Shown here one piece after another: positions 2,310-56,096 of a DNA stretch of 64,000 bases; the stretch's first letter is position 1; every line of letters begins with the position of its first letter. The stretch is taken from assembly GCA_032986305.1 (NCBI GenBank), contig GCA_032986305.1_3672.1. The stretch is one strand, 5' to 3'. Origin of the DNA: a phage. The notes beneath the pieces were generated by a model. That model was not told where the DNA came from. It made no database searches and was given only the letters and a program-made list of their open reading frames with translations. A program made the position numbers and the translations under genes.

Positions 2310-2730
2310 TGCAAAAGCTTTTGGTGAGACAGCGGTACAAAGAGGCCAGGCGATGGGACTGGCACTACCTTTCGTCTTAAAAGAGCACTTTACAGATTTT
2401 CAACTTATCAAAGGTGATAAGGGAATGCTTATCCTGGAGCATAAGTTGAGTAAGAAACGCTACAAAGTTGTTTTTAATTCTAAAGCCCCAACAAAACTTG
2501 GATTCAGAACTTACAATCTCAACCCATCCTATACTAAGGGTGTTGGAAGGGTAGAACAACAGCATTTCAGTGCTAGAGCTTCTTTAGCCCCTTTGATGCT
2601 AAATTTCTCAGGGGTGGCTTTAGGATACCTTGATAAGAAAAGAGTTCTTCATGTCCGTTTCACAGACTTTGTAACGCTTTTAGCTAACAACGAAGTTGAT
2701 GAAAAGGGACGTGTAAAAACAAACTTCTAA
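2272..2730 (+). CDS. hypothetical protein
   Basis: 152-aa ORF in co-directional operon. Confidence 0.4.
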   Translation: MIKSIDLTKELTDAKAFGETAVQRGQAMGLALPFVLKEHFTDFQLIKGDKGMLILEHKLSKKRYKVVFNSKAPTKLGFRTYNLNPSYTKGVGRVEQQHFSARASLAPLMLNFSGVALGYLDKKRVLHVRFTDFVTLLANNEVDEKGRVKTNF

Positions 2731-2745
2731 TAACGCATAGTATGA

Positions 2746-2949
2746 TTGGAGACCGCAATGACACTAAAGTTAACAATTACAGACAGCTTTTCAGAAAACT
2801 TTATCCCAGAAATGATGGGTAAGATGCGATCATTGCTTGATCAGATTGAGGAAGCTGTTTGGGAAGACGATGCTGTAGTGGCTAACGAGCTAGTAGATAA
2901 GTGTAAAAGTATTATTGATGCAGTTGAAGAATATCACGGAGGTTTTTGA
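2746..2949 (+). CDS. hypothetical protein
   Basis: 67-aa ORF; stop overlaps next start (ATGA). Confidence 0.4.
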   Translation: METAMTLKLTITDSFSENFIPEMMGKMRSLLDQIEEAVWEDDAVVANELVDKCKSIIDAVEEYHGGF

Positions 2950-3563
2950 TGGATATTATTGTTCTTAACGCCCCACCTAGCAGCGGCAAGGATCACATTG
3001 CAGATCTCTTGTTGGAAGCTATTCCTAACTCACACCACCGTGAGGTTAAGGAGATGCTCTTCAGTGTGGCAATTAAGGCAGCTGGTGTAACTCCTCAACT
3101 CTGGAATGCACTTTATGACCGCCACTACAAAGAAGAGCCTTGCCCTTTCTTAATGATAGACGGCAAGCATGTTTCTCCGCGAGAGTGGATGATCCATTGT
3201 AGTGAAAATCTGATTAAACCTATCTTTGGTGAAGATGCTTTCGGTAAGGCCGCAGTCACATCCTTGAAGAAAGATTTCCCTAAAGGTAAAGGGGTTGTTG
3301 TTTACTCCGATGGTGGATTCAAAGAGGAGCTGGCATGCCTTAGTGAGTACGCATACAGCACAGGTGGAGATCTGTTGTTGTTCCGTATTCACCGTGTCGG
3401 ATATGACTGGGGAAATGATTCCAGAACCTATCTAAGCCTGGAAAAGAACGGAATAAAAGGGATTGAGTTCGATGTTGTAAATCCTGAAGGTGCACCTTGG
3501 GAATGTGCATCGGAGATTGTGTGCAAGTATATTGATGCTAAAGAGGCCCAAGAAGAATGTTAA
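2949..3563 (+). CDS. deoxynucleoside monophosphate kinase-like protein
   Basis: N-terminal P-loop-like NAPPSSGKDHIAD resembling phage dNMP kinases (T4 gp1 type); SD GGAGG upstream. Confidence 0.5.
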   Translation: MDIIVLNAPPSSGKDHIADLLLEAIPNSHHREVKEMLFSVAIKAAGVTPQLWNALYDRHYKEEPCPFLMIDGKHVSPREWMIHCSENLIKPIFGEDAFGKAAVTSLKKDFPKGKGVVVYSDGGFKEELACLSEYAYSTGGDLLLFRIHRVGYDWGNDSRTYLSLEKNGIKGIEFDVVNPEGAPWECASEIVCKYIDAKEAQEEC

Positions 3564-6136: not shown

Positions 6137-8448
6137 TCACCAAGGTAATTAAAAGCAACGGATGTGAAGTGGCATTCGACCCAGAACGTTTAAATAAGGC
6201 AGCTATTTTCGGTGACGACGGTAACGGCAATTGGTCACACATTGCACTGGATGCATACAAACGACTGTATGATGGATGTACAACCAAAGAAGTTAACCAA
6301 GCTATCATAGACTCCTGTGTTAGCCGTAAAGACGAAGCACATTCCCGTATGGCTGGTCGTGTTCTTATTGGTCAGATTTATAAAGAGGCTTTTGGAGGGT
6401 TTACAAAGATCCCTTCCTTACCATCATTTTACAACGACATGGTTGAGAAAGGGTATTGGGAGGATATGGGTTATAGCTTTACCGAGCTAAATACTTTAGA
6501 CGCTGTTATTGACCACAGCAAAGATCTCGGTTACGGCTATGCAGTCCTTAAACAGTTTCGCGACAAATACGGGATCAAGGATACTCTTAAAGACACCCTG
6601 TTTGAATCTCCCCAGATGATGTTTATGGGGATAGCAATGGCTGTCATGAAGAATATGCCGAAAGAACGTCGTATCAACGATGTTGTAAAATTATACACTT
6701 ATCTGTCCGACTTAAAGATCAATGCTCCGACACCGTACTTAAACGGGCTGCGCACAGGTAAGACAGGGTATGCATCTTGTTGTGTAATAAAAGCGGATGA
6801 TACAGCAAAATCTATTGGTGTGGCACGTGAAGTTGCGTACACAATGACGGTTAACCAAGCAGGTATCGGCTACTATTTATCATCAAGATCTGCAGGCGAT
6901 GGTGTTCGTGGTAACACTATTAAACACATGGGTAAGATTCCATATTATCGAGGTATTGATGCTGGGGTTAAGGAGAACAGACAACAATCGCGTGGCGGTT
7001 CTGCAACAGTATCATTCCTTGCACTAGACCCGCAGATTGATGAGCTAATCCGTTTGAGAAACCCTATGACTGTTGCTTCAAAAAGAATCAACACCATGGA
7101 CTACTCTATAGGTATTAATAGGTCGTTTATCAACCGTGTGGCTAAGAATTTAGATTGGATGCTTGTTTCTTATAAGCACGCTCCTCAACTGCATGAAGGT
7201 ATCTTCACCATGTCTATGGAGGAGTTTGATGCAGAGGTTGATCGTATCGCTAAAGATGACAGTATTCCTAAAACATGGATCCGAGCTAGAGATCTTGCTG
7301 TTGAGCTGATCACGCAGCGTACCGAAGTGGGGAGGCTGTACGTATACTGGACAGATGAGATGAATAGACATACACCTTTTAAAGATGTGATCTACTCAAG
7401 TAACCTGTGTGCAGAAATAGCCCTCCCGACAAAAGGCTATTCAGATATGCGTAATATCTTCAAGTACGATGCTGATGATGGCGAGGTTGCATTGTGCTTC
7501 CTGTCATCTCTTGTAGCTGGAAGGGTTACCCCAGAGGAGTATGAGGATGTTGCATACTACACGGTGCTTATGATTGACAATGTTATGGAAATCATGACAT
7601 ATCCGTATGAAAATATGGAGAGCACTGTTAAAAAACGCAGATCCATCGGGGTTGGCCTTACCAATGTTGCACATTTTATTGCCAGCCACAAGGTTACTTA
7701 CGGATCTCCTGAAAGTAAACAGCTTGTTCACGATCTTGCAGAACTTCACAGCTACAGCTTGCATAAGGCAAGTTTACGGTTGGCAAAAGAGCGTGGTGTC
7801 TGCGAGTGGATGCATAAAACAAAATATCCAGAAGGTTGGTTACCAATCGACACCTATAACAAAGAGGTAGATAGCGTGGTGAAAGATCCTTCTCTTAAAC
7901 AGGATTGGGAAGGGTTACGTAAAGAAATCATTGAAAATGGTGGGCTACGTAATAGCGTTCTTGAAGCATATATGCCTAATGAAAGCTCTTCGCTGGCAAC
8001 AAACACCACTAATGGGGTTTATCCTGTCCGTGAGCACATTATCTTTAAAAAATCGCCACAAGGGCAGGTGCTGTTTATCGTTCCTGACTATGATGAGTTG
8101 AAAGAGTATTACACCTCGGCTTGGGACGTTGATACTAACGACATGATCGATATGTATGCTGTGATTCAAAAATTCACAGGTCAGGCAATCAGCGCGGATT
8201 TATACATAGACTACACCAAGTTGAAAGATGGTAAAATTTCAATGAAGGAGCAGCTAGGGTACCTTATCCGTGCCACTAAATTCGGGATGAAGACATGGTA
8301 TTATTTAAACTCTAGGGTTGGTGCTGGTGACTCCTTGGCAGAGGAACTTCATGCCAAGAAACAGGCTGAAGATGAAACCAGAAAGAACTACCCTTTGATT
8401 GCAGATAGTTCAGTTGAAGATCCGTATTGCGAAAGCTGTGCACTATAA
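6133..8448 (+). CDS. nrdA: ribonucleoside-diphosphate reductase large subunit NrdA (class Ia)
   Basis: ATP-cone N-terminus, motifs SNLCAEIALPT, NESSSLATNTTNG, C-terminal CESCAL; 771 aa; TTG start after GGAGGAAG. Confidence 0.9.
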   Translation: MITKVIKSNGCEVAFDPERLNKAAIFGDDGNGNWSHIALDAYKRLYDGCTTKEVNQAIIDSCVSRKDEAHSRMAGRVLIGQIYKEAFGGFTKIPSLPSFYNDMVEKGYWEDMGYSFTELNTLDAVIDHSKDLGYGYAVLKQFRDKYGIKDTLKDTLFESPQMMFMGIAMAVMKNMPKERRINDVVKLYTYLSDLKINAPTPYLNGLRTGKTGYASCCVIKADDTAKSIGVAREVAYTMTVNQAGIGYYLSSRSAGDGVRGNTIKHMGKIPYYRGIDAGVKENRQQSRGGSATVSFLALDPQIDELIRLRNPMTVASKRINTMDYSIGINRSFINRVAKNLDWMLVSYKHAPQLHEGIFTMSMEEFDAEVDRIAKDDSIPKTWIRARDLAVELITQRTEVGRLYVYWTDEMNRHTPFKDVIYSSNLCAEIALPTKGYSDMRNIFKYDADDGEVALCFLSSLVAGRVTPEEYEDVAYYTVLMIDNVMEIMTYPYENMESTVKKRRSIGVGLTNVAHFIASHKVTYGSPESKQLVHDLAELHSYSLHKASLRLAKERGVCEWMHKTKYPEGWLPIDTYNKEVDSVVKDPSLKQDWEGLRKEIIENGGLRNSVLEAYMPNESSSLATNTTNGVYPVREHIIFKKSPQGQVLFIVPDYDELKEYYTSAWDVDTNDMIDMYAVIQKFTGQAISADLYIDYTKLKDGKISMKEQLGYLIRATKFGMKTWYYLNSRVGAGDSLAEELHAKKQAEDETRKNYPLIADSSVEDPYCESCAL

Positions 8449-8454
8449 TTTTAA

Positions 8455-8476
8455 AGGGGCTTCGGCCCCATTTTAG
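8455..8476 (+). terminator. GC hairpin with UUCG tetraloop between nrdA and nrdB (terminator or attenuator)
   Basis: GGGGC-TTCG-GCCCC followed by ATTTTAG. Confidence 0.4.
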
Positions 8477-8486
8477 AGGTAGAATA

Positions 8487-9575
8487 ATGGCTGTATTTAA
8501 TGCTGAGAACACCGCTCATAAAACTGGTGACTATCCGCTGTTTCTGGGACAGCAAATGGGTATGTACGACTCTATCAACAAAAAATATCCACAACTGTTC
8601 GAACTGTACAAAAAACAAAAAGAACAAGACTGGGCAGAGGATGAAGTGGATTTGTCGCAATCTATTTCAGATTTTGTAACATGCTCCAAGTCAACTTATG
8701 ATGTGATGGTGCAGACCTTGATGTGGCAATGGGAGGCTGATAGCGTTGCGGCAAGATCGATCATCTGCCTCTTTTCACCATTCATCACTAATAGTGAGCT
8801 TTTCACTCTATTGATGAAACAGTCAGAGATTGAAGTTCTTCACGCGCTAACTTACTCAGAGATTGTTAGACAATGCCTCCCCAATGCCCGTGAGATTATA
8901 GAAGAGATTCAGGAAAACCAAAACGTTCTGAGCAGATCTGGCGTTATTGTCAAATACATGCAAGAGCTTGAGGTTATTGGTGCAAAATACCGACTGGATC
9001 CTTCTAGTGTTGAAGAAGATATTGTGCGGAAATGCATTCTTAGAGCGCTTTTTGCACTTTTAGCCCTGGAAAGTATTGAGTTTATTGCAAGTTTTGCATG
9101 CACTTTCGCAGTAGCTGAACAGGGTATTTTTGTTCAGGTGGCGCAGCTTGTTCAAAAAATCATGCTTGACGAAATGCTACATTCGAAAGGTGATTTTGCC
9201 ATCATTGATATCCTGCTTAATGATCCGGCATGGGAGAAAAGCTTCCTTGAGATAAAAGGGGAGTTAAAAGAGATTCTTGATGAAGTACGAACCAAAGAGT
9301 ACGGTTGGAGTGACTATATTTTCAGCGAAGGAAGAGCGATTATAGGTCTTAACTCACCATTGCTTAAAGAATGGGTTGACTATAACTGCTCACCGATTTA
9401 TGATTACTACGGCATCGACAAAGACTTTGTGCCGCCAACAAAGGACCCTCTACCGTTTATGCAGGTGTGGATGAAACCTTCATTGCAACAGACGGCGAAC
9501 CAAGAAATGTCGAACACTGACTACCGCGTCAACACAACTGTTAATGACGCTGAAGAAGAAATTTGGGAGTTTTAA
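8487..9575 (+). CDS. nrdB: ribonucleoside-diphosphate reductase small subunit NrdB
   Basis: Typical NrdB N-terminal region (WAEDEVDLSQSISDF) and length; SD GAGG before ATG 8487. Confidence 0.85.
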   Translation: MAVFNAENTAHKTGDYPLFLGQQMGMYDSINKKYPQLFELYKKQKEQDWAEDEVDLSQSISDFVTCSKSTYDVMVQTLMWQWEADSVAARSIICLFSPFITNSELFTLLMKQSEIEVLHALTYSEIVRQCLPNAREIIEEIQENQNVLSRSGVIVKYMQELEVIGAKYRLDPSSVEEDIVRKCILRALFALLALESIEFIASFACTFAVAEQGIFVQVAQLVQKIMLDEMLHSKGDFAIIDILLNDPAWEKSFLEIKGELKEILDEVRTKEYGWSDYIFSEGRAIIGLNSPLLKEWVDYNCSPIYDYYGIDKDFVPPTKDPLPFMQVWMKPSLQQTANQEMSNTDYRVNTTVNDAEEEIWEF

Positions 9576-45792: not shown

Positions 45793-45824
45793 ATACAAAA
45801 ATGCCCCACCCTTTCGGGCAGGGC
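45793..45824 (-). terminator. rho-independent terminator (9-bp stem, GAAA loop), duplicated at 56862-56895
   Basis: GCCCTGCCC-GAAA-GGGTGGGGC then UUUUUGU on minus strand. Confidence 0.55.
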
Positions 45825-45839
45825 TATGTTAACTAATTG

Positions 45840-47066
45840 TTAAAAAGGGATGTCATCATCAAAGGAGTACTGTGCTGGATTCTGATCCATCGGGTCATCT
45901 TCCCCATCATTTACAGGAGGAGCGTCTACAGTGTTTTGCTGTGGAGCTGCTTCCTGTTTGGCAGCCTTAGGTTCTTGATGGTCAGTTGACCCAGCACCGT
46001 TCTTGATCCAATCGTACAACGGCTCAGCCAGATTAGTCAAGACATCTTTTGCTTCTGCAGTAATTGCCGCTGCAAAATCATCAACTTTCGTTTTCTTGTC
46101 AATACGGCGACAAGCGTTCAACACCGCATTACCGACACTGGCACCTACTTCATCTTCAGTTCGGTTGGTGGCTTGAGCATACTCTTTCTTAAGCTCAATG
46201 GTGACTACGTGCAGTGTTTTAGCCACGCCCAGTGGGTCGTCTACCTTAAACCCGCGATCCAGGATGATCTGCAACGCATTGATGCTATGCCCCGTTTCCA
46301 CACCGATAGGGTCGTAAGAGGATTTACGCTTGCCACCAGAGCCTTGAGTGCCGTTCTCTGCCTTAGGAGGATAGGCCTTGAAACCACTGATAATGTTTCC
46401 GGTGTCTTTGTCAACAATGGCTGCAACACGACCACCTACCACCAGGTCTTTAAGCTGCTCATCAGTTACAACCATAGCACCTTCGCCAATCTTGTGGTCA
46501 TTAACAGTAACCACGTTGCCAACAATCTGAGTCACATCACCATAGATGCGTAAAACGTCCTGATTGGCATTCTGCTGAGGTTTCTGCTTCTGGCCTTGTG
46601 ATTGTGCACCTTGTTGCTGTTTTTGCTGCTGAGTCGCTGCTGGAGCCTCTCCTGCACCCAGCTTGACCATCTTAGCCAGTGAGCCTTTGTAATAGGTCTT
46701 ACCGTTATGCTCGTTTGCCTTCAAAGGAATATTTACGATCCATCCCGGCGTTACGGTTTCCCACTTGTCATCAATTTTAACAGAGACAGAGTCTTGATGA
46801 CCAGGTTTAAGCAGCTTATCACCCATGCTGATCCAAACTTCTTCACCACCTTGAAGCAGGTTATCAGAGGAATCCAGTTCAGAAATCAGTAAAGAGATGG
46901 TGTGGCTGGATTCAATTTTCTTACCTTGCCACACAGTGGTTTTAATACCTGTTGTAGGATCAGCACCTTTGATAGGCTTGATGCTGACACGTTTAATCAT
47001 GCCGTGAGCCAGTAAAACAGTTTCACGCGGATTCATCGGGTTAGCGAATTGTTGAATAACGCTCAT
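45840..47066 (-). CDS. putative ssDNA-binding protein with C-terminal acidic tail ending DDDIPF
   Basis: C-terminus ...SFDDDIPF is the E. coli SSB tail motif; Q-rich linker. Confidence 0.45.
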   Translation of the reverse strand: MSVIQQFANPMNPRETVLLAHGMIKRVSIKPIKGADPTTGIKTTVWQGKKIESSHTISLLISELDSSDNLLQGGEEVWISMGDKLLKPGHQDSVSVKIDDKWETVTPGWIVNIPLKANEHNGKTYYKGSLAKMVKLGAGEAPAATQQQKQQQGAQSQGQKQKPQQNANQDVLRIYGDVTQIVGNVVTVNDHKIGEGAMVVTDEQLKDLVVGGRVAAIVDKDTGNIISGFKAYPPKAENGTQGSGGKRKSSYDPIGVETGHSINALQIILDRGFKVDDPLGVAKTLHVVTIELKKEYAQATNRTEDEVGASVGNAVLNACRRIDKKTKVDDFAAAITAEAKDVLTNLAEPLYDWIKNGAGSTDHQEPKAAKQEAAPQQNTVDAPPVNDGEDDPMDQNPAQYSFDDDIPF

Positions 47067-47431
47067 TATTTGTCTCCTTGTTCTTCGTTAGTGTTTGCCG
47101 TGTGTGCAAACCCTGCTTGAATTAATTTGTCCTGAACTTGAGCCAACAGCCCCATTGCAAAACTTGTGGTCCCAGAGAGGGCCATCAGCATATCTCGTTG
47201 TTGAGCTACCCAACCTAAGGCATAGTCCAAACGACGATATTTTTCTTCTTCACGCAGAGCTTGAAATAATTGTTCAGCCTCTGGTTGTTGTGTGAGCTCC
47301 TGAAGTCTTCCCATGAAAGAAGAAAGCACTAGTAGAAGAGACACTTGATCTTTACTTAACCCTAAGAAAAATTCTTGAGGTTGTTCTTGCTCGTTCATCG
47401 CAACCGACGCTTGATCGTTCATTTGTTCCAT
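47066..47431 (-). CDS. hypothetical protein
   Basis: 121 aa, coupled to downstream gene. Confidence 0.4.
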   Translation of the reverse strand: MEQMNDQASVAMNEQEQPQEFFLGLSKDQVSLLLVLSSFMGRLQELTQQPEAEQLFQALREEEKYRRLDYALGWVAQQRDMLMALSGTTSFAMGLLAQVQDKLIQAGFAHTANTNEEQGDK

Positions 47432-47514
47432 TATGGAATCTCCGATTTTATTTGAACAACATAGAAGGAGACACTATTTTAGCATCCCCTTCTGCAAATT
47501 ACAATAGGTATTTG

Positions 47515-47760
47515 TTAGCCAATCACTTCGAAAGTTCCCCAATTCCCGTCCAGCAGGCAGGTGATCGGATCCCCATCGTCGTCAAAGATTTCAAAGTTTT
47601 CAGCATCCAGGATGTGGCCCTCGAACACAATACTTTCGTCGCCACCACCAGAAATAACAGCGTATTCCTTACCTTCAGTCAAGTTTTGACACCCTTTGCC
47701 ACCAAAACCTACTTCAACACAACGTACTTTCTGTCCTGCGCGAGCAACTACTTCAGTCAT
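47515..47760 (-). CDS. hypothetical protein
   Basis: 81 aa. Confidence 0.4.
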   Translation of the reverse strand: MTEVVARAGQKVRCVEVGFGGKGCQNLTEGKEYAVISGGGDESIVFEGHILDAENFEIFDDDGDPITCLLDGNWGTFEVIG

Positions 47761-47777
47761 CTTAAGGTCTCCTGATA

Positions 47778-48098
47778 TTAATCGTCAAGTTCAAAATAGA
47801 TTTTAACAGCTTCATCAAAGATTGGAATCCCAATGTTGTTGATAAGCTGCCAAACTACCATATCTTTACCTGGATCTGGGAGAATGTCAACCTTTCTCCA
47901 TGCGCTGTATATCCAGTTCGGACCACCTTCTGCACTAACTGGCAGATTTTCACCAGCCTCCTGCAGATACTTATACAGCAAAAGATATTCTGGATACTCT
48001 AGAACACTGTCCTCTGTAGTATATAGCAGTTCACGGTATACTTTTAAGAACCCTGCTGGGGTAATGTTTTCAGTCTTCATTTGCCGCTTCTCCTGCAT
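47778..48098 (-). CDS. hypothetical protein
   Basis: 106 aa. Confidence 0.4.
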   Translation of the reverse strand: MQEKRQMKTENITPAGFLKVYRELLYTTEDSVLEYPEYLLLYKYLQEAGENLPVSAEGGPNWIYSAWRKVDILPDPGKDMVVWQLINNIGIPIFDEAVKIYFELDD

Positions 48099-48462
48099 TC
48101 ATCAGGTCTGCCATAGCGTCACCTACGAAGAGAACAACCACATCGTTGACAGCGTCAGCATCATCTTTATTGACGTTGCTGAATTTAGGACACACCGCAA
48201 TGATCATATAGACACCGTTACCAACCTGAACTGTCCGTGTGGTGCACATCATGGCGGTATTTGTGCCTTCTTTGAAGGCGAAGCCTTGAAGACGCTCCTC
48301 TAAAGTGTTACCGGTAGATTTCAGAAGCGCCAGCTCGTCCAAGGCATAGATGATATCTCCGGAAGTTAGTGTTGCCTTGCCATCAGACACCATAATAACT
48401 CCATCAGCACCGTCAAGCTTAGAGGCTTCAAAGATATCAATATCCCAAATATTTTTCATCAC
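48070..48462 (-). CDS. hypothetical protein
   Basis: 130 aa. Confidence 0.4.
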   Translation of the reverse strand: MMKNIWDIDIFEASKLDGADGVIMVSDGKATLTSGDIIYALDELALLKSTGNTLEERLQGFAFKEGTNTAMMCTTRTVQVGNGVYMIIAVCPKFSNVNKDDADAVNDVVVLFVGDAMADLMNAGEAANED

Positions 48463-48779
48463 GCTTCCTCGTCGTCTAAAGAGTTGAAGATTTCACCGAA
48501 GTATTCTAAGACTTCTAGCTCCCGTGTGGTGCAGAAAACACAGTCACCGTTGTCATCCTCGATAACGGCCTCTTTACCCAGCACATCTACTTCAAGTTTA
48601 TCGTTCAACAGGACAGCCCCTGTGTAAACTTTGTCGGCTGTGCAGTCCCGAAAAGCAGAGTCTTTCTCCAGATAGTCTGGCTTAACCTTGGCTTTAATTC
48701 GTTGGTATTGTTTGGTCATTGCTGTGGTCCCCTTTCGTTTTGATAGGGCCATTATATTAGGCCCCATCACTGTTGTCAA
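48459..48779 (-). CDS. hypothetical protein (tandem paralog of 48783..49037)
   Basis: Shared motifs DCT...Y and DDNGDCVFCT / DDEGDSVWCT. Confidence 0.4.
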   Translation of the reverse strand: MTTVMGPNIMALSKRKGTTAMTKQYQRIKAKVKPDYLEKDSAFRDCTADKVYTGAVLLNDKLEVDVLGKEAVIEDDNGDCVFCTTRELEVLEYFGEIFNSLDDEEA

Positions 48780-48782
48780 GTA

Positions 48783-49037
48783 TTAATGTTCAGGTTTTAC
48801 AAAAACTACTTCATTAACAGTGCACCAGACAGAGTCTCCTTCATCATCTTTAAAGGTAAGGCACTGTGCTGAGTTTTCCAGCTCATCAATCTCTTCTTGT
48901 GATAAAGGGGCCCCTTCTTCCAAAAGGGCTTTTACCAAAGGGTTCTCACAAAACTCTGCTTCATAAATAGTGCCAAGTGTGCAATCTTTAAAAGCTCGGT
49001 CGTTTGCAACGCATTCTGGTTTCAACATGATTTTCAT
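48783..49037 (-). CDS. hypothetical protein (tandem paralog)
   Basis: See 48459..48779. Confidence 0.4.
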   Translation of the reverse strand: MKIMLKPECVANDRAFKDCTLGTIYEAEFCENPLVKALLEEGAPLSQEEIDELENSAQCLTFKDDEGDSVWCTVNEVVFVKPEH

Positions 49038-49113
49038 CTTGGAGGTCTCCTTAATTATTTAACAATCAATACTCTGTTTGTGGGGAGTATCTTACATCTA
49101 ACCTTACTTCTTG

Positions 49114-49512
49114 TCAACGACTATTTTCAATCATCCACCAAGGATCAAGGTAGGTTTGTTGACTTTTTGCCCACTGGCAAACATCTTCGTACATCTGAAC
49201 TTCGTTTTCAGTCAGTTCACGAATAGGCTCATCTATACCCTCATTTTTGTGGTAATCCCAGTCGGCATCGATCTCCCACAACCACGACTTGTTGTCACCA
49301 CGCTTACGCACACAGAAGTCACCGGGACGGCCTGCCAATGCATTTAAGAACTCGTTCTCCGCTCGCTCCTGAAGAATACTAAGGAGCAAAACGTTGGAGC
49401 ATGACCGTAAAATATGCTTCAGCTCACAATCATCAATCTCAACTTCAATACGTTGTTTGACTGTGTGGGTACCTTTTACTAACATCCTACCTCCTCTAAA
49501 CGAACTCTGCAA
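49114..49512 (-). CDS. hypothetical protein
   Basis: 132 aa. Confidence 0.4.
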   Translation of the reverse strand: MQSSFRGGRMLVKGTHTVKQRIEVEIDDCELKHILRSCSNVLLLSILQERAENEFLNALAGRPGDFCVRKRGDNKSWLWEIDADWDYHKNEGIDEPIRELTENEVQMYEDVCQWAKSQQTYLDPWWMIENSR

Positions 49513-49690
49513 GAGTTGTGTTGTTCACTGCACCGCAGTAAATGGAGTATCCCAGCCCATTAGAGTGCAGAAACCACGGCGTGCCGAAATTATCTTTCAC
49601 GTAGACATCGCCGTTGTTTGTAAAGGGCCAATATTCTTCACCAAGGGTAAAATACCTATTCATATCTTCAGCAAGATACTTTACTTTCAT
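49496..49690 (-). CDS. hypothetical protein
   Basis: 64 aa. Confidence 0.35.
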   Translation of the reverse strand: MKVKYLAEDMNRYFTLGEEYWPFTNNGDVYVKDNFGTPWFLHSNGLGYSIYCGAVNNTTLAEFV

Positions 49691-49914
49691 AGGTCCTCTT
49701 CAACAACTACAAACTTGGCAAGCAAAGTGGTTCCGTAGATATGATACTCACCGTTTGCCAGGTGAGAGATATACCAGGCAACCCCTTCCTCGTCTTTAAT
49801 CATTTTGTTTGCACGAGCTTTATCGTAATAAACCTCGTAGGTCTTTCCTTCTTTAAAGAAGGACAGGTCTGTCATCTTTTCTTCTACAAAAGTAGCTTTA
49901 ACCAAAGTTGTCAT
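49687..49914 (-). CDS. hypothetical protein
   Basis: 75 aa. Confidence 0.4.
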   Translation of the reverse strand: MTTLVKATFVEEKMTDLSFFKEGKTYEVYYDKARANKMIKDEEGVAWYISHLANGEYHIYGTTLLAKFVVVEEDL

Positions 49915-50285
49915 TGATCGGTCTCCTTCTTGTTAAGTCTGAATACTGCAATAATAGCATTCCCAAGGTGCAGTGTCAAATCATTTCCAAGATACCACAA
50001 CATTCCACGGTCATCTTTAATGAAAGGGTAACAATCTGGTGCCTTCCAGACATTGTACACTTTCCCAACCTGAAAGAAATCAGGCCCTGTTGGGATTTTG
50101 GTGCCAGGCCACACTTGAGATACCTGAACACACTCCACCTGCATAATAACAGGAATGGTCATGGATGTAAATGTTTTTGTTGGCTCTACTACCATAAAAG
50201 TCTCCTCTTTGCTCAACAACACTTCCATGTGTTGATAGTTTACATTAGTGACAATCACCCCAGTTACGACCACACAAGTATTCAC
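49911..50285 (-). CDS. hypothetical protein
   Basis: 124 aa. Confidence 0.4.
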   Translation of the reverse strand: MNTCVVVTGVIVTNVNYQHMEVLLSKEETFMVVEPTKTFTSMTIPVIMQVECVQVSQVWPGTKIPTGPDFFQVGKVYNVWKAPDCYPFIKDDRGMLWYLGNDLTLHLGNAIIAVFRLNKKETDQ

Positions 50286-50601
50286 CTGTGATCTGGAACG
50301 GGACTCCCATCATTTTAGAAGCTTGCCAGAAGCAATGCACCACCATTTCACCCACAGGGCTCCAGATAAGTTCAAGCTTTCCGTCATCGTTCAGGATAGG
50401 ATCGTACACCGTGTTTCCGTCTCTGTCAACCACCTCGTTTCCGTTTTCATCCTTGCGTGCCTTTTTGTACTTATGACCGTCGAACACATGAAGTTTGGCT
50501 TCCTGCTCTGCCTTAAATGCTTCCAGTTCTTCAATTGTGTCGAAGGTGTACACAGTCTTATACTTAGGTGTGTCAGGGACCTGAAGTTGGTACTCATCCA
50601 A
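50245..50601 (-). CDS. hypothetical protein
   Basis: 118 aa. Confidence 0.4.
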   Translation of the reverse strand: MDEYQLQVPDTPKYKTVYTFDTIEELEAFKAEQEAKLHVFDGHKYKKARKDENGNEVVDRDGNTVYDPILNDDGKLELIWSPVGEMVVHCFWQASKMMGVPFQITGEYLCGRNWGDCH

Positions 50602-50868
50602 TAGTTCAGGTAGGTCGTTAAGCTACCCCGCACCATTACGTGCATAGCCATACGTTTTCACGTAGGATCGGACCATCTCATATTCCTATGATAAGCAACC
50701 ACAGGAATCCTCCCATTTCGACCGCACTTGCTGGTCTACTTCCTTTCGGAATGGCCTCTGAGCGTTCGCTCTTTTGAGCGCTTCGTTGCGGATTACCTTG
50801 CCATAAGGTTTAGGCTTCCCGCAGTTAAAGAGGTTATTCGACATAGATTACTCTATGAAGCCACAATG

Positions 50869-53298
50869 TTATTTATGGTAATAAATAATACGACGAACAC
50901 CTTCATCGTACCACCCACGCTTCACCATTTGGTGGTGCATGAGTATCCCAACTAAGTCACACAGCGATGCACCACCATTCTGTTGGTATGCATTAAGTAA
51001 AGAGTGTTTAGATCGGGTCCAGATGGCATGACCATCAAAAGAGTAGATAAACTTCTTACCCGTTGCTTCCCAGAATTTCTCCAGATCCTCTTTACGCCCC
51101 TTAAGACCAGGGTTGGCATCCCAAAGTGCATCGATTACCCTTTGTCCCAACTCTGGAGAGATGTCCAGCATATCTGCAACTTTATCTTTTTGTGCCCCGT
51201 ACATAACCCCATACGTGATAGGTTTACCGTCGTTACGGGACACCTCTCTGCCTGCTACTTTTGTATATGCCTCAGCATTGTTTTGGTGTGCGTCTCCGTT
51301 ACTTACAACATCGTAATACAGGCCGTTGTCGAACTCAAAGGCACCCCAAGCCCCGATAAGCTGCTCTAAGTTGGACCCGTCGATACCGATCTCAAAGTAT
51401 CCTGGAGGAACACCCCACAAGCTACGCATCTCTTTACCCATAACCACTTTAGGAGAGGGTTTAGGCATGTTTGCACAAATACTGTGTTTCTGTCTGGAAG
51501 TGTTTGTTAATCCAGAGCTTTTAGCAGGAAGCTTATGGTCAATCTTCAAGCGTGGGTGATTAAGAAGACCAGTATCAACCTTATCCTCCTTGATCGGATC
51601 AAGGACCGATCTGCGGTTTCGCAATGATAACCACAAGACGATATCTTTAGCCATCTCTCCGTTCAATTTTTCAAGATTCGGACATAGGTGTCCAAACGTA
51701 TCTTTCAGTTGCGGAGAAGTAATAAGTGCCCTAGCTTTTCTACGTATTTTCCTGAATACTTCCTTTTTAATCCTTTCGGAGTTAGGAAAGCTTCGGAACT
51801 TGTGCACAGTTGTCTGGAACTTAGCATCAGTTTTGTTCCAGAAGTTGATAATTAGGTCACAATACTCTGACTCCAAAAGCTCGTCCATATATGCATATAC
51901 TCGTGCATCAACATCTGCATCAGGTAAAGCTTTCTTCTTGCTGTCTTTAGTTACATCCTTAGTTCTCCACATTGTCGGAAGCCAGCCAGCACTGATCAGG
52001 TATCGCTTAATGTCGTCCTGGTTGCTGATTTTCATAGGTATCTTGCAGTCCGGCATTCGCTTCTGCTGTAGATCACTTATTGCCTGATCCATCAACTCTT
52101 TAGGTAAAGGGTGTGGTGTGGAAGTGCCCTTAATATAGCCTCTCAAGAAATCAGCCATCTTATCGGGGTCTTTGCATCCCATCTCTTCACACCATTTTAT
52201 CCCCATCTTGCTGACATCTCCTGTAGAGGTAAATGCTCTCTTAGGCGGGGCTTTGAACTCTAAAGCGCTCATGTCTACAGGATATCCAAGCTTATCTTTT
52301 AACCATTTCCAACCATTATTAGAGATTGTCCCGTCTTGGTTAAACGGCTTTTCAGGGAACTTGGGCCGCTGAGACATTGACAGCTCTTTTAAAGGCAGTT
52401 GTGGTTCAACACGATCAGCGATTTCTTTCATCCACGCATCGCAACGGTCACGTAAAGCAATAGCTCCATCTATGTCGAAATATACGCCCTGACGGGCCTG
52501 CAGCTCCATCAGGAAGTGCTGCAGCATACCTCGGCGCAATGCGTTCTTCCAGGTGATCTTCTTGAACCCTTTTGGCTTCTCTTTGGCAGGATCGTACATA
52601 AAGTTCTGCATGTCAGATTTGCCGTAGAATACACCTTTTGATTCCGCTACCAGCTCTTTCCAGAGCAACTCCTGGATGATAACGTCCTCGAATACACGAT
52701 CCACATACTTCCACAACGGAAGATCGCGCCAGTCATCAATTTGAACTTTCTGGTTACCAAGGGCGTAGCCCCATGCCATAAGGCCGTGAGGACCAACAGG
52801 CTGCATTTTCTTAGTAACCGGGTTGAATACAGCGTCCGGACAACCTTTTGGTAAAGGGCGATCAGGCCACAAGATTCGGCTCATCGCCAACGTATCAAAC
52901 AGGTTAACCTGGTGGTCGTTGATAGTCCCCATACATTTAGGATCACGGAACATATCAAAATGAATACCGGATAATCTCTCCATCAGCATAAAGTCATAAC
53001 TATAGCAGTTATGGCAGTTCAAAGCTGTTGGTGACCAGTCGGAATTGCCTGTAAGCCAACCTTCCAACTCCGAAAAATCTGCTATGCGAACTTCAAAATC
53101 TTTATAAAGAGCTTTCTTTGCCAGAATAAAGTTCTTAGCCTTCTCTATATCCTCCTCGGAGTAGTGTGTGCGGTCATTTAGAGGGAGGAACAGCATAAAA
53201 CGGTTCTTATTCAGCTCTTTAAACAGGCCGCAGTGATAATAAAGATCTGGGTCTTCCAAAAGCCCGGAGGCCTCAAAATCGAAGCTATACATGCTCAT
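50869..53298 (-). CDS. family A DNA polymerase (T7 gp5-like) with 3'-5' exonuclease domain
   Basis: Exo I FDFEASGL; motif A GIDGSNLEQL (cf. T7 DASGLELR); motif B RNDGKPITYGVMYG; SD AAGGAG. Confidence 0.75.
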   Translation of the reverse strand: MSMYSFDFEASGLLEDPDLYYHCGLFKELNKNRFMLFLPLNDRTHYSEEDIEKAKNFILAKKALYKDFEVRIADFSELEGWLTGNSDWSPTALNCHNCYSYDFMLMERLSGIHFDMFRDPKCMGTINDHQVNLFDTLAMSRILWPDRPLPKGCPDAVFNPVTKKMQPVGPHGLMAWGYALGNQKVQIDDWRDLPLWKYVDRVFEDVIIQELLWKELVAESKGVFYGKSDMQNFMYDPAKEKPKGFKKITWKNALRRGMLQHFLMELQARQGVYFDIDGAIALRDRCDAWMKEIADRVEPQLPLKELSMSQRPKFPEKPFNQDGTISNNGWKWLKDKLGYPVDMSALEFKAPPKRAFTSTGDVSKMGIKWCEEMGCKDPDKMADFLRGYIKGTSTPHPLPKELMDQAISDLQQKRMPDCKIPMKISNQDDIKRYLISAGWLPTMWRTKDVTKDSKKKALPDADVDARVYAYMDELLESEYCDLIINFWNKTDAKFQTTVHKFRSFPNSERIKKEVFRKIRRKARALITSPQLKDTFGHLCPNLEKLNGEMAKDIVLWLSLRNRRSVLDPIKEDKVDTGLLNHPRLKIDHKLPAKSSGLTNTSRQKHSICANMPKPSPKVVMGKEMRSLWGVPPGYFEIGIDGSNLEQLIGAWGAFEFDNGLYYDVVSNGDAHQNNAEAYTKVAGREVSRNDGKPITYGVMYGAQKDKVADMLDISPELGQRVIDALWDANPGLKGRKEDLEKFWEATGKKFIYSFDGHAIWTRSKHSLLNAYQQNGGASLCDLVGILMHHQMVKRGWYDEGVRRIIYYHK

Positions 53299-53356
53299 AA
53301 AGTGTTCTCCTTAAAGGGGAGGCGGTTGTACTACCCCTCCCACTCTTGGTTAAACA

Positions 53357-55435
53357 TTAAAAAGGCGTTTCATCATCCTCAAAACCAGGGACAGGGTCAG
53401 AGGACGGATCATCGTACTGGAGGTCTTCCTGCGTGTCAACAGGCTTAACAGTAGGAGTTACAACCTTATCAGCCACAACCTTGCCCATAGGTGTTTCTAC
53501 AACTGCATGCTCCTGATCCTCAAACATAGCCTGAGGTCTCCAAACAACCTCCCCACCTTCTCCATCTGTAAACATTTGCATTTCTTTGTCCCAGTACCAA
53601 TTACTGGCATCATGGAACTTACCTGTATGTGGGTCCATAACCAAAGTGTCTGCAATACCCAATGTTTTTGCTGGGCGGTTTTTAAGACCTACTAAACGGA
53701 CACGCCCACGAGAACGATCCACCATTTCTTCGGCCTCAACACCTATGACTACCCAACTCAACTGTTCAAGCCCAGCCGATCCTCGCAAATTCTCTTTTCG
53801 CACAGGATACCAGAAAGGTAATGGGTTACCATCCTTGTCCTTAGGAGGCACAATCTCTGTACGTTTGAGGTGAGCGATCACCAAGATAAACACGTTAAAC
53901 TGCTTACAAAACGCAGCCAGCTGAGTCATAGCCATGTCCAGTTCTTTTCGCTCATCTTTAACATTAAGCCCTGAAATTACCATAGACAGGTGATCCAGCA
54001 CAATATAGCGACAATGATACAGGCAGACCATTTGCTTAAGCTTGGTAATCAACTCGTCCACTGGAATAGACCCGAAATGTTTGAACACTTTGATTTTTCC
54101 AGCTTTTGCCCATGATTGGTGAATCTCTGCGTGTTCTTGATCAGTTAAAAACTGGCTAGGATCTTCAACAAACTCTTTAACATCAAACCCTAGCTGGTTT
54201 GCATACAAGGAGTTAATTGCTTCCTCTGGGTCCTCCTCAAGATGGATCATGCATAGACGATCATCCTCTTCATAGTCATCGGCCTTCGGGCATGTCGGGT
54301 CCATCAAGTATCTTGCAATACAATGTTCCAGTTTTTTAGCTACAGTTGTTTTACCGCCCCCTGATGGCCCTGTAAGCATTACGAGTGTCCCTTTGTGCAA
54401 GCCTTTTAGCATTTTTTGCAGTTTTGGAAACTCTGCGCTGATATCTACCCCGTTGGAAGTCTTTTTCCGCAAAGATTCGATAGAGAAGTCTTCTAAATCC
54501 GACACAGCATCCGGCACATACTTAACAGGATGCCGGAACATGTTTACAATATCTTCCAGCTTTTTAGCCTTCAGCATGTCACGGATATCTTTTACACCAT
54601 CAGGGTCGTTTACCTCGCCAGGATATTCCACGTGGTAAACGTTGTCAGCCATCAAAAATGCTGCGATATTATGTGTGGCTTCAACACCTTTGATAACGTG
54701 TTTTTGCTTCTCTACCTCGTTAGCTGCATCGTTGTCCATTGCAAGGACCACTGTTCCGTAGCTACGGATAAATTTCTCATTGTTTGCAAAAGTGTCTACT
54801 GCGTTTGCACATCCACAGTTAATTCCAACAAAAGGCAGGCAGGGTTTTCCTGCCAGATCACCCCCGTTGATAACTGCATCGATCCCGTCCTGAACCTCTT
54901 TAGCCCACTGTTTCACCTTTGCCGGGGCTTTAGCGTTGGTGAGAATCCCTTTTACTTGTATCTGATATGCAGCCTGCCATGCTGCAATAACATCACCTTC
55001 CCCCTCACAAACGTTAATCTGCTTACGGTTGTTGGAAGATGCACACAGCTTTTGACCAAACATCTGGGAGTTAGCCTTTACGATGCCTACTACAGACCAG
55101 TGTCCTTTTTGCTCTTTCGGCTTAGACCAATCACGCTTTTTGAAACCGGACAGATTCCCGTATCGGTCGTAATATGGGAAATATGTTGCAGTAACTGTCA
55201 CACCGTCTTCTTGGGATAATGCTGATCGCACACCAAAATATTGTGCAGCCATCAGACCGATATTCTGTTGTGGAACAGGGACAATTTTAGTATTTTCTAA
55301 AACAGTCTCTACAGTTTCAACCTCTTTTTCATCACGATAGTCTCGTTTCATACTGCCCCCACTTTTGTATCTTGTTGCAACCGGGTTAGGTTCTCCATAG
55401 CGGCTATATGCAGAGGATATAAACTTATTCCCCAT
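53357..55435 (-). CDS. primase-helicase (TOPRIM primase plus DnaB-like helicase, T7 gp4-like)
   Basis: TOPRIM CEGEGD and AMDNDAAN; Walker A LTGPSGGGKTT; C-terminus ...FEDDETPF; SD GAGGAG before ATG 55435. Confidence 0.8.
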   Translation of the reverse strand: MGNKFISSAYSRYGEPNPVATRYKSGGSMKRDYRDEKEVETVETVLENTKIVPVPQQNIGLMAAQYFGVRSALSQEDGVTVTATYFPYYDRYGNLSGFKKRDWSKPKEQKGHWSVVGIVKANSQMFGQKLCASSNNRKQINVCEGEGDVIAAWQAAYQIQVKGILTNAKAPAKVKQWAKEVQDGIDAVINGGDLAGKPCLPFVGINCGCANAVDTFANNEKFIRSYGTVVLAMDNDAANEVEKQKHVIKGVEATHNIAAFLMADNVYHVEYPGEVNDPDGVKDIRDMLKAKKLEDIVNMFRHPVKYVPDAVSDLEDFSIESLRKKTSNGVDISAEFPKLQKMLKGLHKGTLVMLTGPSGGGKTTVAKKLEHCIARYLMDPTCPKADDYEEDDRLCMIHLEEDPEEAINSLYANQLGFDVKEFVEDPSQFLTDQEHAEIHQSWAKAGKIKVFKHFGSIPVDELITKLKQMVCLYHCRYIVLDHLSMVISGLNVKDERKELDMAMTQLAAFCKQFNVFILVIAHLKRTEIVPPKDKDGNPLPFWYPVRKENLRGSAGLEQLSWVVIGVEAEEMVDRSRGRVRLVGLKNRPAKTLGIADTLVMDPHTGKFHDASNWYWDKEMQMFTDGEGGEVVWRPQAMFEDQEHAVVETPMGKVVADKVVTPTVKPVDTQEDLQYDDPSSDPVPGFEDDETPF

Positions 55436-56096
55436 CTTTAAACTCCTCAATCTCTTTCATCACTCTATCTCTTACAGCTTTTGCTTCTTCTAAAGTATTG
55501 TAAGTGCCATAGCTCTTTCTCTTTTTGCCGCTTTGCACTCTAACTCTCCACCTTCCAGAGCTCGGCACATAGAACACCCCTGTTACACCGCTAGTGTTTC
55601 TAACATCCAAATCTTGCGGGACGAATTTTCCCTTCTCCCATAACTTTCTGCATGCAATTGCATCTTCTTTTGTCTTAAAACACCCTAAGTATATGTCTCC
55701 AACAGATGCAATCCATCTTTTTATACCTCTAGGGTAGCGTACACCTCGACACCCTGAGGTATTGTTAATGCTCAGTTTGTCACTGTAGATCATGTCTCGT
55801 GCATTATCGCCCTGTGTACCTAGGACTAAGTTCTCTACCCTATCATCGCCTGCTATGTCGTTCTTGTGCCGCACAACAAGTCCTTCTGGTATCTCCCCGT
55901 AATGCATCTCCCAAACTATTCTATGCCTACGAACACTCCCAACACCTGACACATATATCACTCTATAGCCATTTTTATCTGTACCTGTGGCCTCCTCACC
56001 TGCGTAATGTATAACCCTGCCCCTTCCGGCTTTTGCAGTGTACGCCCAGAACAGTTTGCCGTCACTGTAGGTGAAATACTTGCTCCAGTCAACCAT
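55425..56096 (-). CDS. HNH homing endonuclease with two AP2 DNA-binding domains (free-standing)
   Basis: HNH_3 motif HRIVWEMHYGEIP...RHKN...DDRVENL; AP2-like SGCRGVRY... and SGVTGVFY... repeats. Confidence 0.75.
   Translation of the reverse strand: MVDWSKYFTYSDGKLFWAYTAKAGRGRVIHYAGEEATGTDKNGYRVIYVSGVGSVRRHRIVWEMHYGEIPEGLVVRHKNDIAGDDRVENLVLGTQGDNARDMIYSDKLSINNTSGCRGVRYPRGIKRWIASVGDIYLGCFKTKEDAIACRKLWEKGKFVPQDLDVRNTSGVTGVFYVPSSGRWRVRVQSGKKRKSYGTYNTLEEAKAVRDRVMKEIEEFKDGE

Follow-up and report, generated by a model that had tools for sequence, protein, structure and literature searches.

An SSB-like protein and a gp4-like helicase with related acidic Pro-Phe tails in the replication region of an rV5-like phage

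A replication gene cluster in a Vequintavirus

We analyzed a stretch of phage DNA 64,000 nucleotides (nt) long (GenBank assembly GCA_032986305.1, contig GCA_032986305.1_3672.1; here called the window) that encodes a primase-helicase, a DNA polymerase, and a protein resembling SSB (single-stranded DNA-binding protein). The SSB-like protein and the primase-helicase both carry an acidic C-terminal tail that ends in Pro-Phe. The replication region, 9.6 kb of the window, is 96-97% identical to many Vequintavirus genomes (rV5-like Escherichia coli myoviruses of 135-140 kb), such as those of PDX and the BASEL phage RudolfGeigy. Judged by this identity, the source phage is a Vequintavirus, an rV5-like myovirus with a genome of ~137 kb; an earlier, sequence-only reading of the DNA had correctly placed it in a genome much larger than that of T7 (40 kb). 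RudolfGeigy served as the sister genome for whole-genome checks, which covered ~130 kb, with positions 130-137 kb outside. Every gene from 43 to 58 kb of the window lies on the minus strand, and distant relatives likewise have the helicase, polymerase, and SSB-like genes in that order within 10 kb. The features are as follows.

45840..47066, minus strand: gene for the SSB-like protein, 408 amino acids (aa), with predicted OB fold, small barrel, four-helix bundle, and disordered acidic tail ending DDDIPF
46653..47066, minus strand: predicted N-terminal OB-fold domain of this protein, residues 1-138, isoelectric point (pI) 9.1, presumed to be the module that binds single-stranded DNA (ssDNA)
46371..46556, minus strand: predicted small beta-barrel, residues 171-232, strand order b1-b2-b3-helix-b4-b5
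46002..46310, minus strand: four-helix bundle, residues 253-355, from the alignment of homologues and the predicted structure
45843..46001, minus strand: disordered acidic C-terminal tail, residues 356-408, pI 4.05, with the tip FDDDIPF at 45843-45863
50875..53298, minus strand: DNA polymerase exon 1, 808 aa, with 3'-5' exonuclease domain, thumb insertion, and motifs A and B, up to ...YYH
50599..50874, minus strand: group I intron of 276 nt (scored at 64.7 bits by Rfam RF00028, whose gathering score is 50)
50245..50598, minus strand: DNA polymerase exon 2, 117 aa, DEYQLQV...GRNWGDCH (phrog_8888 DNA polymerase, positions 185-295)
53357..55435, minus strand: gp4-like primase-helicase, 692 aa from ATG (Pfam DnaB_C and AAA_25; phrog_239 primase/helicase)
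53360..53575, minus strand: acidic C-terminal tail of the helicase, ~72 residues, pI 4.05, ending FEDDETPF, from the sequence and its conservation among homologues

The 408-aa protein is a candidate SSB

An AlphaFold2 model of the 408-aa protein was built with 27 homologues. In this model, residues 1-138 form an all-beta domain and residues 140-169 a disordered, Gln-rich linker, followed by the small barrel (171-232), the four-helix bundle (253-355), and a disordered tail (362-408) across which the predicted local distance difference test (pLDDT) score is below 50. The N-terminal domain is predicted to have an OB fold, so that the refuting condition set by the sequence-only reading, lack of such a fold, does not hold. 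The small barrel is not present in short-form homologues. Most of the invariant residues of the family fall within the four-helix bundle (G255, G259, H260, N263, G312, and L316), for which searches by fold or sequence returned no informative match. The bundle contains the motifs GVETGHxxN and GASVGNAVLNAC and is more conserved than the OB domain.

Database searches did not assign the protein to a known family. It had no match to a Pfam family at E values up to 0.01, the Pfam SSB family included, and none by sequence search of the PDB; among PHROGs it matched only phrog_4477 (function unknown). A PDB profile search retrieved E. coli SSB alone, and this match ran via the tail only (...NEPPMDFDDDIPF, PDB 1eqq). 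Searches with ten distant members of the family gave no functional name. Homologues are labelled "hypothetical" in nearly every record; two automated annotations call them SSB, one in phage Eryne and one in the UniRef name for the EduardKellenberger homologue.

We also looked for another SSB. No canonical SSB or gp2.5 homologue was found by phmmer in the window or in the ~130 kb of RudolfGeigy, and phmmer queries consisting of the OB domains from the SSBs of HK75 and morffagbaw likewise found no match in either. The rV5 genome paper lists a polymerase, helicases, and a ligase, and does not list an SSB (PMC3606486). As one part of an overall explanation to which we give slightly better than even chances, the 408-aa protein would be the SSB encoded by the phage itself: unannotated, with an OB fold, unrelated to gp2.5, and presumed to bind ssDNA.

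Both proteins end in a rare and conserved acidic Pro-Phe tail

The 408-aa open reading frame (ORF; 45840..47066, minus strand) ends ...NPAQYSFDDDIPF, with FDDDIPF as its final residues, and the primase-helicase ORF (53357..55450, minus strand) ends ...DPVPGFEDDETPF, with FEDDETPF as its final residues. The last seven residues of the 408-aa protein are those of the E. coli SSB C terminus, and some of its homologues match the host SSB at 11 of 13 residues (...DEPPMDFDDDIPF versus ...NEPPMDFDDDIPF). Both ends are thus as the sequence-only reading had given them: the helicase end can be read directly from its ORF, and the likeness of SFDDDIPF to the E. coli SSB tail is borne out by the match to PDB 1eqq over the last 7 residues.

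The frequency of such ends by chance was surveyed in the 367 six-frame, stop-to-stop segments of at least 60 aa in the window and in 694 segments of RudolfGeigy. Three of the 367 window segments end in PF, two of them being the SSB-like protein and the helicase. Three also end in Phe with at least three acidic residues among the last eight; the third here is NrdB (...DAEEEIWEF), and 11 segments have at least four acidic residues among the last eight. In RudolfGeigy, an acidic ...PF end was found on the SSB-like protein and the helicase only. NrdB, the beta subunit of ribonucleotide reductase (RNR; window 8427-9575, plus strand), was considered as a third member of the system and rejected, since its tail has a known, unrelated role: in class Ia RNR, the acidic, Phe-ended tail presumably binds the alpha subunit.

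The Pro-Phe end is conserved in both families. P407 and F408 are invariant among the 27 aligned homologues of the 408-aa protein, at identities down to 29%. The PF motif is present in 56 of 57 homologues (44 end in PF, and in 12 a short extension follows PF); the last of the 57 is a fragment. As a query free of the tail, a profile of the N-terminal domain alone was run against 1.8 billion proteins and yielded 119 cluster representatives; among the 108 new ones of at least 180 aa, 81 end in PF and a further 14 have PF plus an extension. For the helicase, 102 of 118 full-length homologues end in PF and 4 more have the extended form (106/118 in total).

The tail consensus is [FW]-D-[DE]-[DS]-I-P-F in the 408-aa family and D-x-D-[NSD]-D-[ST]-P-F in the helicase family. 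By sequence comparison, the two tails are related but are not one and the same motif. The sequence-only reading had described them as shared, which holds insofar as both are acidic, Phe-ended, and conserved but not at the level of the motif itself. Their distributions also differ. The SSB tip is universal in its family, whatever tail the neighboring helicase bears, and helicases with the acidic PF tail occur only in a Vequintavirinae-like clade and some relatives, down to ~42% identity.

The helicase and polymerase are relatives of T7 gp4 and gp5

The helicase ORF spans 53357..55450 (minus strand) when read from a TTG; annotated relatives start at the ATG at 55435. Its best PDB match is T7 gp4 (E = 4e-16), followed by Twinkle. 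TOPRIM motifs are present in the N-terminal third (54400-55435, minus strand), at residues 148 (CEGEGD) and 238 (MDNDA), and a Walker A motif at residue 361 (GPSGGGKT; numbering from the TTG). We found no zinc finger in the helicase, and the first 120 aa contain no Cys. Many helicase homologues (P0063-P0065 and P0105-P0152; 975-1025 aa) are ~300 aa longer than that of the window, with the tail unchanged; the surplus probably comes from inteins or similar insertions.

The sequence-only reading had identified a T7-like family A polymerase from two motifs. Both are present in the ORF at 50869..53298 (minus strand), DGSNLEQL (motif A) at residue 640 and RNDGKPITYGVMYG (motif B) at residue 688, and the identification stands. 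The picture has to be amended in one respect: the gene is split by the group I intron, which interrupts motif C between YYH and DE, so that the motif is complete only after splicing, at residue 806. Splice sites were inferred from the continuity of the reading frame (YYH to DEYQLQV). The RudolfGeigy polymerase coding sequence is annotated as two joined pieces. The Rfam RF00028 match covers 50649-50884, and ~50 nt at the 3' end of the intron fall beyond the model.

The spliced polymerase has 925 aa, and its sole PDB match is T7 gp5 (E = 7e-16). By blastp against gp5, the palm and fingers are 25% identical (E = 3.5e-19) and the exonuclease domain is matched at E = 3.5e-5. Motifs A, B, and C align with those of gp5 once the sequence is spliced, a Tyr is conserved where gp5 has Y526, and the C terminus reads GRNWGDCH, compared with GPNWAICH in gp5. 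An insertion of ~100 residues lies at the site of the gp5 thioredoxin-binding domain but is dissimilar in sequence to that domain.

Among relatives, the polymerase ORF of L012 is uninterrupted (929 codons), that of L009 carries ~300 aa of intein-like sequence inserted in motif B, and that of L022 runs to 1257 codons. Selfish elements have a hotspot in the polymerase gene.

The annotations of RudolfGeigy contain no SSB, clamp, or clamp loader, and no separate primase. They do contain a 5'-exonuclease, a DnaQ-like exonuclease, endonuclease VII, an ATP-dependent ligase, and a PIF1-type helicase.

Tail extensions and neighboring features

In relatives, and not in the window, a 15-aa extension, [AS]P[IV]GLQY...I[YH]A[LI], follows PF in some homologues of the SSB-like protein and of the helicase, and also in canonical SSBs of unrelated siphoviruses. 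It would bury the carboxylate of the terminal Phe. Extension loci are as follows.

L002 (EmilHeitz), 2501-3167
L016, 11180-11843
L035 (morffagbaw), 1501-1984
L003 (HK75), 1566-2072

DNA alignment identifies the extension in EmilHeitz and L016 as the 5' end of a cassette that has been inserted, with the ORF of a Cys-rich endonuclease beginning inside it, and phage morffagbaw has the same layout. In L013, L019, and L024, related endonucleases follow directly after the stop codon and the extension is absent. A constant pairing of extension and homing endonuclease was considered and rejected, as the extension occurs without the endonuclease in HK75, L027, and Klebsiella phage DP. These layouts suggest that the DNA encoding SSB tips is a target of a family of homing endonucleases. 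A paper on Hna defense that we consulted proved irrelevant to SSB tails.

Three further features adjoin the main genes of the window.

45803..45824, minus strand: terminator-like hairpin with a T-run, directly 3' of the stop codon of the SSB-like gene (9-bp stem, 7 G-C pairs)
47066-47431, minus strand: 121-aa ORF, phrog_7310, function unknown
55425..56096, minus strand: homing-endonuclease gene with HNH_3 and AP2 domains, 223 aa (Pfam HNH_3, E = 5e-17; AP2, E = 3e-9)

Because of the hairpin, which is strong and is conserved in relatives by DNA alignment, the SSB-like gene appears to end a transcription unit. The phrog_7310 ORF overlaps the start codon of the SSB-like gene by one base (ATGA), which suggests translational coupling of the two. 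The endonuclease gene overlaps the start of the helicase gene on its upstream side and is no part of the replisome; RudolfGeigy lacks it, and a Dcm-like methyltransferase gene abuts the helicase gene there.

The tails as probable docking peptides of a proposed T7-style replisome

The explanation that we favor, with a confidence a little above even, is that these genes specify the core of a T7-style replisome of an rV5-like myovirus, one that has no clamp and is tied together by docking tails. This explanation takes as given the gene identities, the predicted OB fold, the conservation of the terminal motifs, and their uniqueness in the genome; from these we infer that the 408-aa protein binds ssDNA and that the tails are interaction motifs. 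The parts would be a gp4-like hexameric helicase with TOPRIM, a gp5-like family A polymerase, and the phage's own OB-fold SSB, the last arranged like a bacterial SSB, in which a long disordered linker joins a basic OB domain to the acidic tip, here DDDIPF. Both tails are most likely docking peptides of this replisome. They may work as short linear motifs, that of the helicase being disordered, ~70 residues long, and ending D-E-T-P-F. The terminal Phe, with its free carboxylate, and the preceding acidic residues would enter a hydrophobic pocket of the partner flanked by basic residues.

In T7, the gp2.5 tail and a gp4 tail peptide (DTDF, PDB 6P7E) reach a basic patch at the front of gp5 (K587/K589/R590/R591), and the terminal Phe of gp2.5 is essential (PMC12339929 and references cited there). 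By analogy, the partner would most likely be the phage polymerase, and the helicase, the polymerase, and the SSB-coated lagging strand would be tethered to one another. The polymerase keeps GKK[FY]I throughout its family, aligned to gp5 R590/R591 (two basic residues). It also has another, clade-specific and very basic segment, RIKKEVFRKIRRKAR, whose net charge is +7 to +9 in phages with an acidic PF tail on the helicase and +1 to +6 in the others, which is a lead. Since the SSB tip is identical to that of the host, it should also be able to bind host SSB-interacting proteins. The receptor of the helicase tail, which is polar at position -3, may be a distinct one or be tuned differently. Any assignment of the tails to a surface, or of both to the same one, is speculative.

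Several observations weigh against this explanation. Position -3 is consistently Ile, Val, or Leu in the 408-aa family and Ser or Thr in the helicase, a systematic difference suggesting that the two tails have different or differently tuned receptors. Distant helicases end ...GSY, ...VEEY, ...GGRF, or ...HQEF, with the neighboring SSB-like proteins keeping ...DDDIPF and the polymerase remaining similar. A clade-specific helicase tail beside a universal SSB tip points to different evolutionary histories, and one common receptor is not required. Where the polymerase aligns with the front patch of gp5, its net charge is +2 in the rV5 clade versus +5 in relatives with tail-less helicases, which does not favor that particular patch. 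The charge correlation of the other basic segment is a weak trend, confounded by phylogeny. Finally, T7 gp4 needs a zinc finger to make primers, and the helicase here lacks one.

Alternative explanations

A first alternative is that mimicry of the host interactome is the main function of the tails. The phage SSB would replace the host SSB, and its tip would recruit or titrate host SSB-interacting proteins (chi-psi of DNA polymerase III, PriA, RecQ, ExoI, RNase HI, Ung, Topo III, and DnaG), with the helicase tail as a second bait; binding to the phage polymerase would be compatible with this. The identity of FDDDIPF to the E. coli tip, the match of some homologues over 11 of 13 residues, and the universality of the tip regardless of the helicase tail all argue for it. 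DDDIPF is a documented docking motif for many partners of E. coli SSB, with DnaG and chi competing for it (PMC5872125, PMC3632105), and phage SSB tips can recruit cognate partners, as in HK620 SSB and Sak4 (PMC5928155). Against it, a polymerase, a helicase, exonucleases, and a ligase are all encoded by the phage itself, which may not need host replisome factors, and the helicase tail has a polar Ser or Thr where bacterial-type tips and this SSB family keep Ile, Leu, or Val. We regard host mimicry as the main function as possible, at well under even chances.

A second alternative confines the tails to action within or between the SSB and the helicase. The tails might fold back on basic DNA-binding surfaces and thereby autoregulate binding; otherwise, the helicase might be loaded on SSB-coated DNA through contact of its tail with the SSB, either in the OB cleft or at the helical domain. 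That one protein combines a basic OB domain (pI 9.1) with an acidic tail (pI 4.05) fits such a scheme, and the conserved four-helix bundle, with its invariant His and Asn and no assigned role, could be the receptor. In an AlphaFold2 model of gp2.5, the tail lies in the protein's own positive groove (PMC12339929), and the E. coli SSB tail is cited as weakly binding its own DNA-binding site (PMC5928155). Autoregulation leaves the strict conservation of the terminal Pro-Phe unexplained, however, and known systems combine autoregulation with partner binding. We consider this alternative unlikely.

It is likewise doubtful that both tails are true mimics of the SSB C terminus (SSB-Ct), serving as two baits for the host SSB interactome or for a common polymerase pocket that evolved to read the host-type tip. 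Were this so, the four-helix bundle would be a new tip-regulated module, the helicase would be the first replicative helicase in the SSB-Ct network, and a large unannotated SSB family, with at least 119 clusters at 50% identity, would be defined.

The 408-aa protein might instead be a recombination mediator or annealing protein, with an OB fold and a helical domain (compare RecO) and an SSB-type tip, rather than the replicative SSB. It does have domains beyond those of a plain SSB, and T7 gp2.5 combines SSB and annealing functions (NC_001604 annotation). Yet the phmmer searches above yielded no other SSB candidate, the succession of OB fold, disordered linker, and acidic tip is the layout of an SSB, and the gene lies in a conserved cluster with the polymerase and helicase genes. 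This makes a mediator improbable. A coincidental likeness of low-complexity acidic ends, which might be entertained because acidic C termini are common (the 11 window segments above), is effectively refuted by the invariance or near-invariance of Pro-Phe in both families down to 29-42% identity, the lack of further acidic PF ends in the ~130 kb of RudolfGeigy, and the same optional 15-aa extension after PF in both families and in canonical SSBs.

Implications

If the docking explanation is right, it supplies a candidate for the missing SSB of rV5-like phages, including phi92-like and related 135-150 kb myoviruses, a group used in phage therapy and represented in the BASEL collection. The 408-aa protein would then stand for a widespread family of SSBs whose domain layout is new and which goes unannotated in Pfam and PHROGs. 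The tails suggest that large myoviruses, too, use acidic tethers with a terminal Phe on the T7 principle, in the dialect of the bacterial SSB tip. The terminal Phe, the loss of which from gp2.5 has a dominant-lethal phenotype, would offer a handle on replisome assembly, on crosstalk between the phage and the host SSB interactome, and possibly on defense systems that sense phage SSBs.

Comparison with known systems

Tethering by acidic aromatic tails is an established principle. The system described here is T7-like in its working but is not a full member of the T7 type, so that the T7-type replisome proposed by the sequence-only reading holds in part. Like T7, the phage encodes a polymerase and a helicase that are sequence relatives of gp5 and gp4, the gene of the helicase lying immediately upstream of that of the polymerase; neither a clamp nor a clamp loader is annotated, and disordered, acidic, Phe-ended tails occur on both the SSB and the helicase. 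Unlike in T7, the SSB is not homologous to gp2.5 (by phmmer), has extra domains, and comprises 408 aa rather than 232. The helicase lacks a zinc finger, and its tail of ~70 residues is longer than that of gp4, which has 17. The polymerase, at 925 aa, has large insertions and a group I intron, and the genome is ~137 kb rather than 40 kb. The T7 tails, read from NC_001604, end ...EDGDF and ...NDTDF. The likeness to gp2.5 and gp4 tails that had been proposed thus extends to the acidic character and the terminal Phe but not to the ending itself, which is DF in T7 (DGDF and DTDF) and of the bacterial SSB-tip type here (IPF and TPF).

HK620 SSB and Sak4 offer a second comparison. HK620 SSB is also phage encoded, and its last six residues resemble DDDIPF and are needed to recruit the partner (PMC5928155). 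It differs in being a distant member of the canonical family, with an annealase as its partner; here, the helicase bears a related tail too. There seems to be no earlier description of this SSB family, of its architecture, or of a replicative helicase with an SSB-tip-like tail.

Compared with E. coli-type SSB, the 408-aa protein has the same sequence of parts: a predicted basic OB fold is followed by a disordered, Gln-, Pro-, and Gly-rich linker and by an acidic tip whose last seven residues are identical. It differs in having no Pfam SSB match and no sequence similarity in the OB domain, and in adding the small barrel and the conserved four-helix bundle. Overall, the tips in this phage resemble the E. 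coli SSB tip (IPF) more than they resemble the T7 tails (DF).

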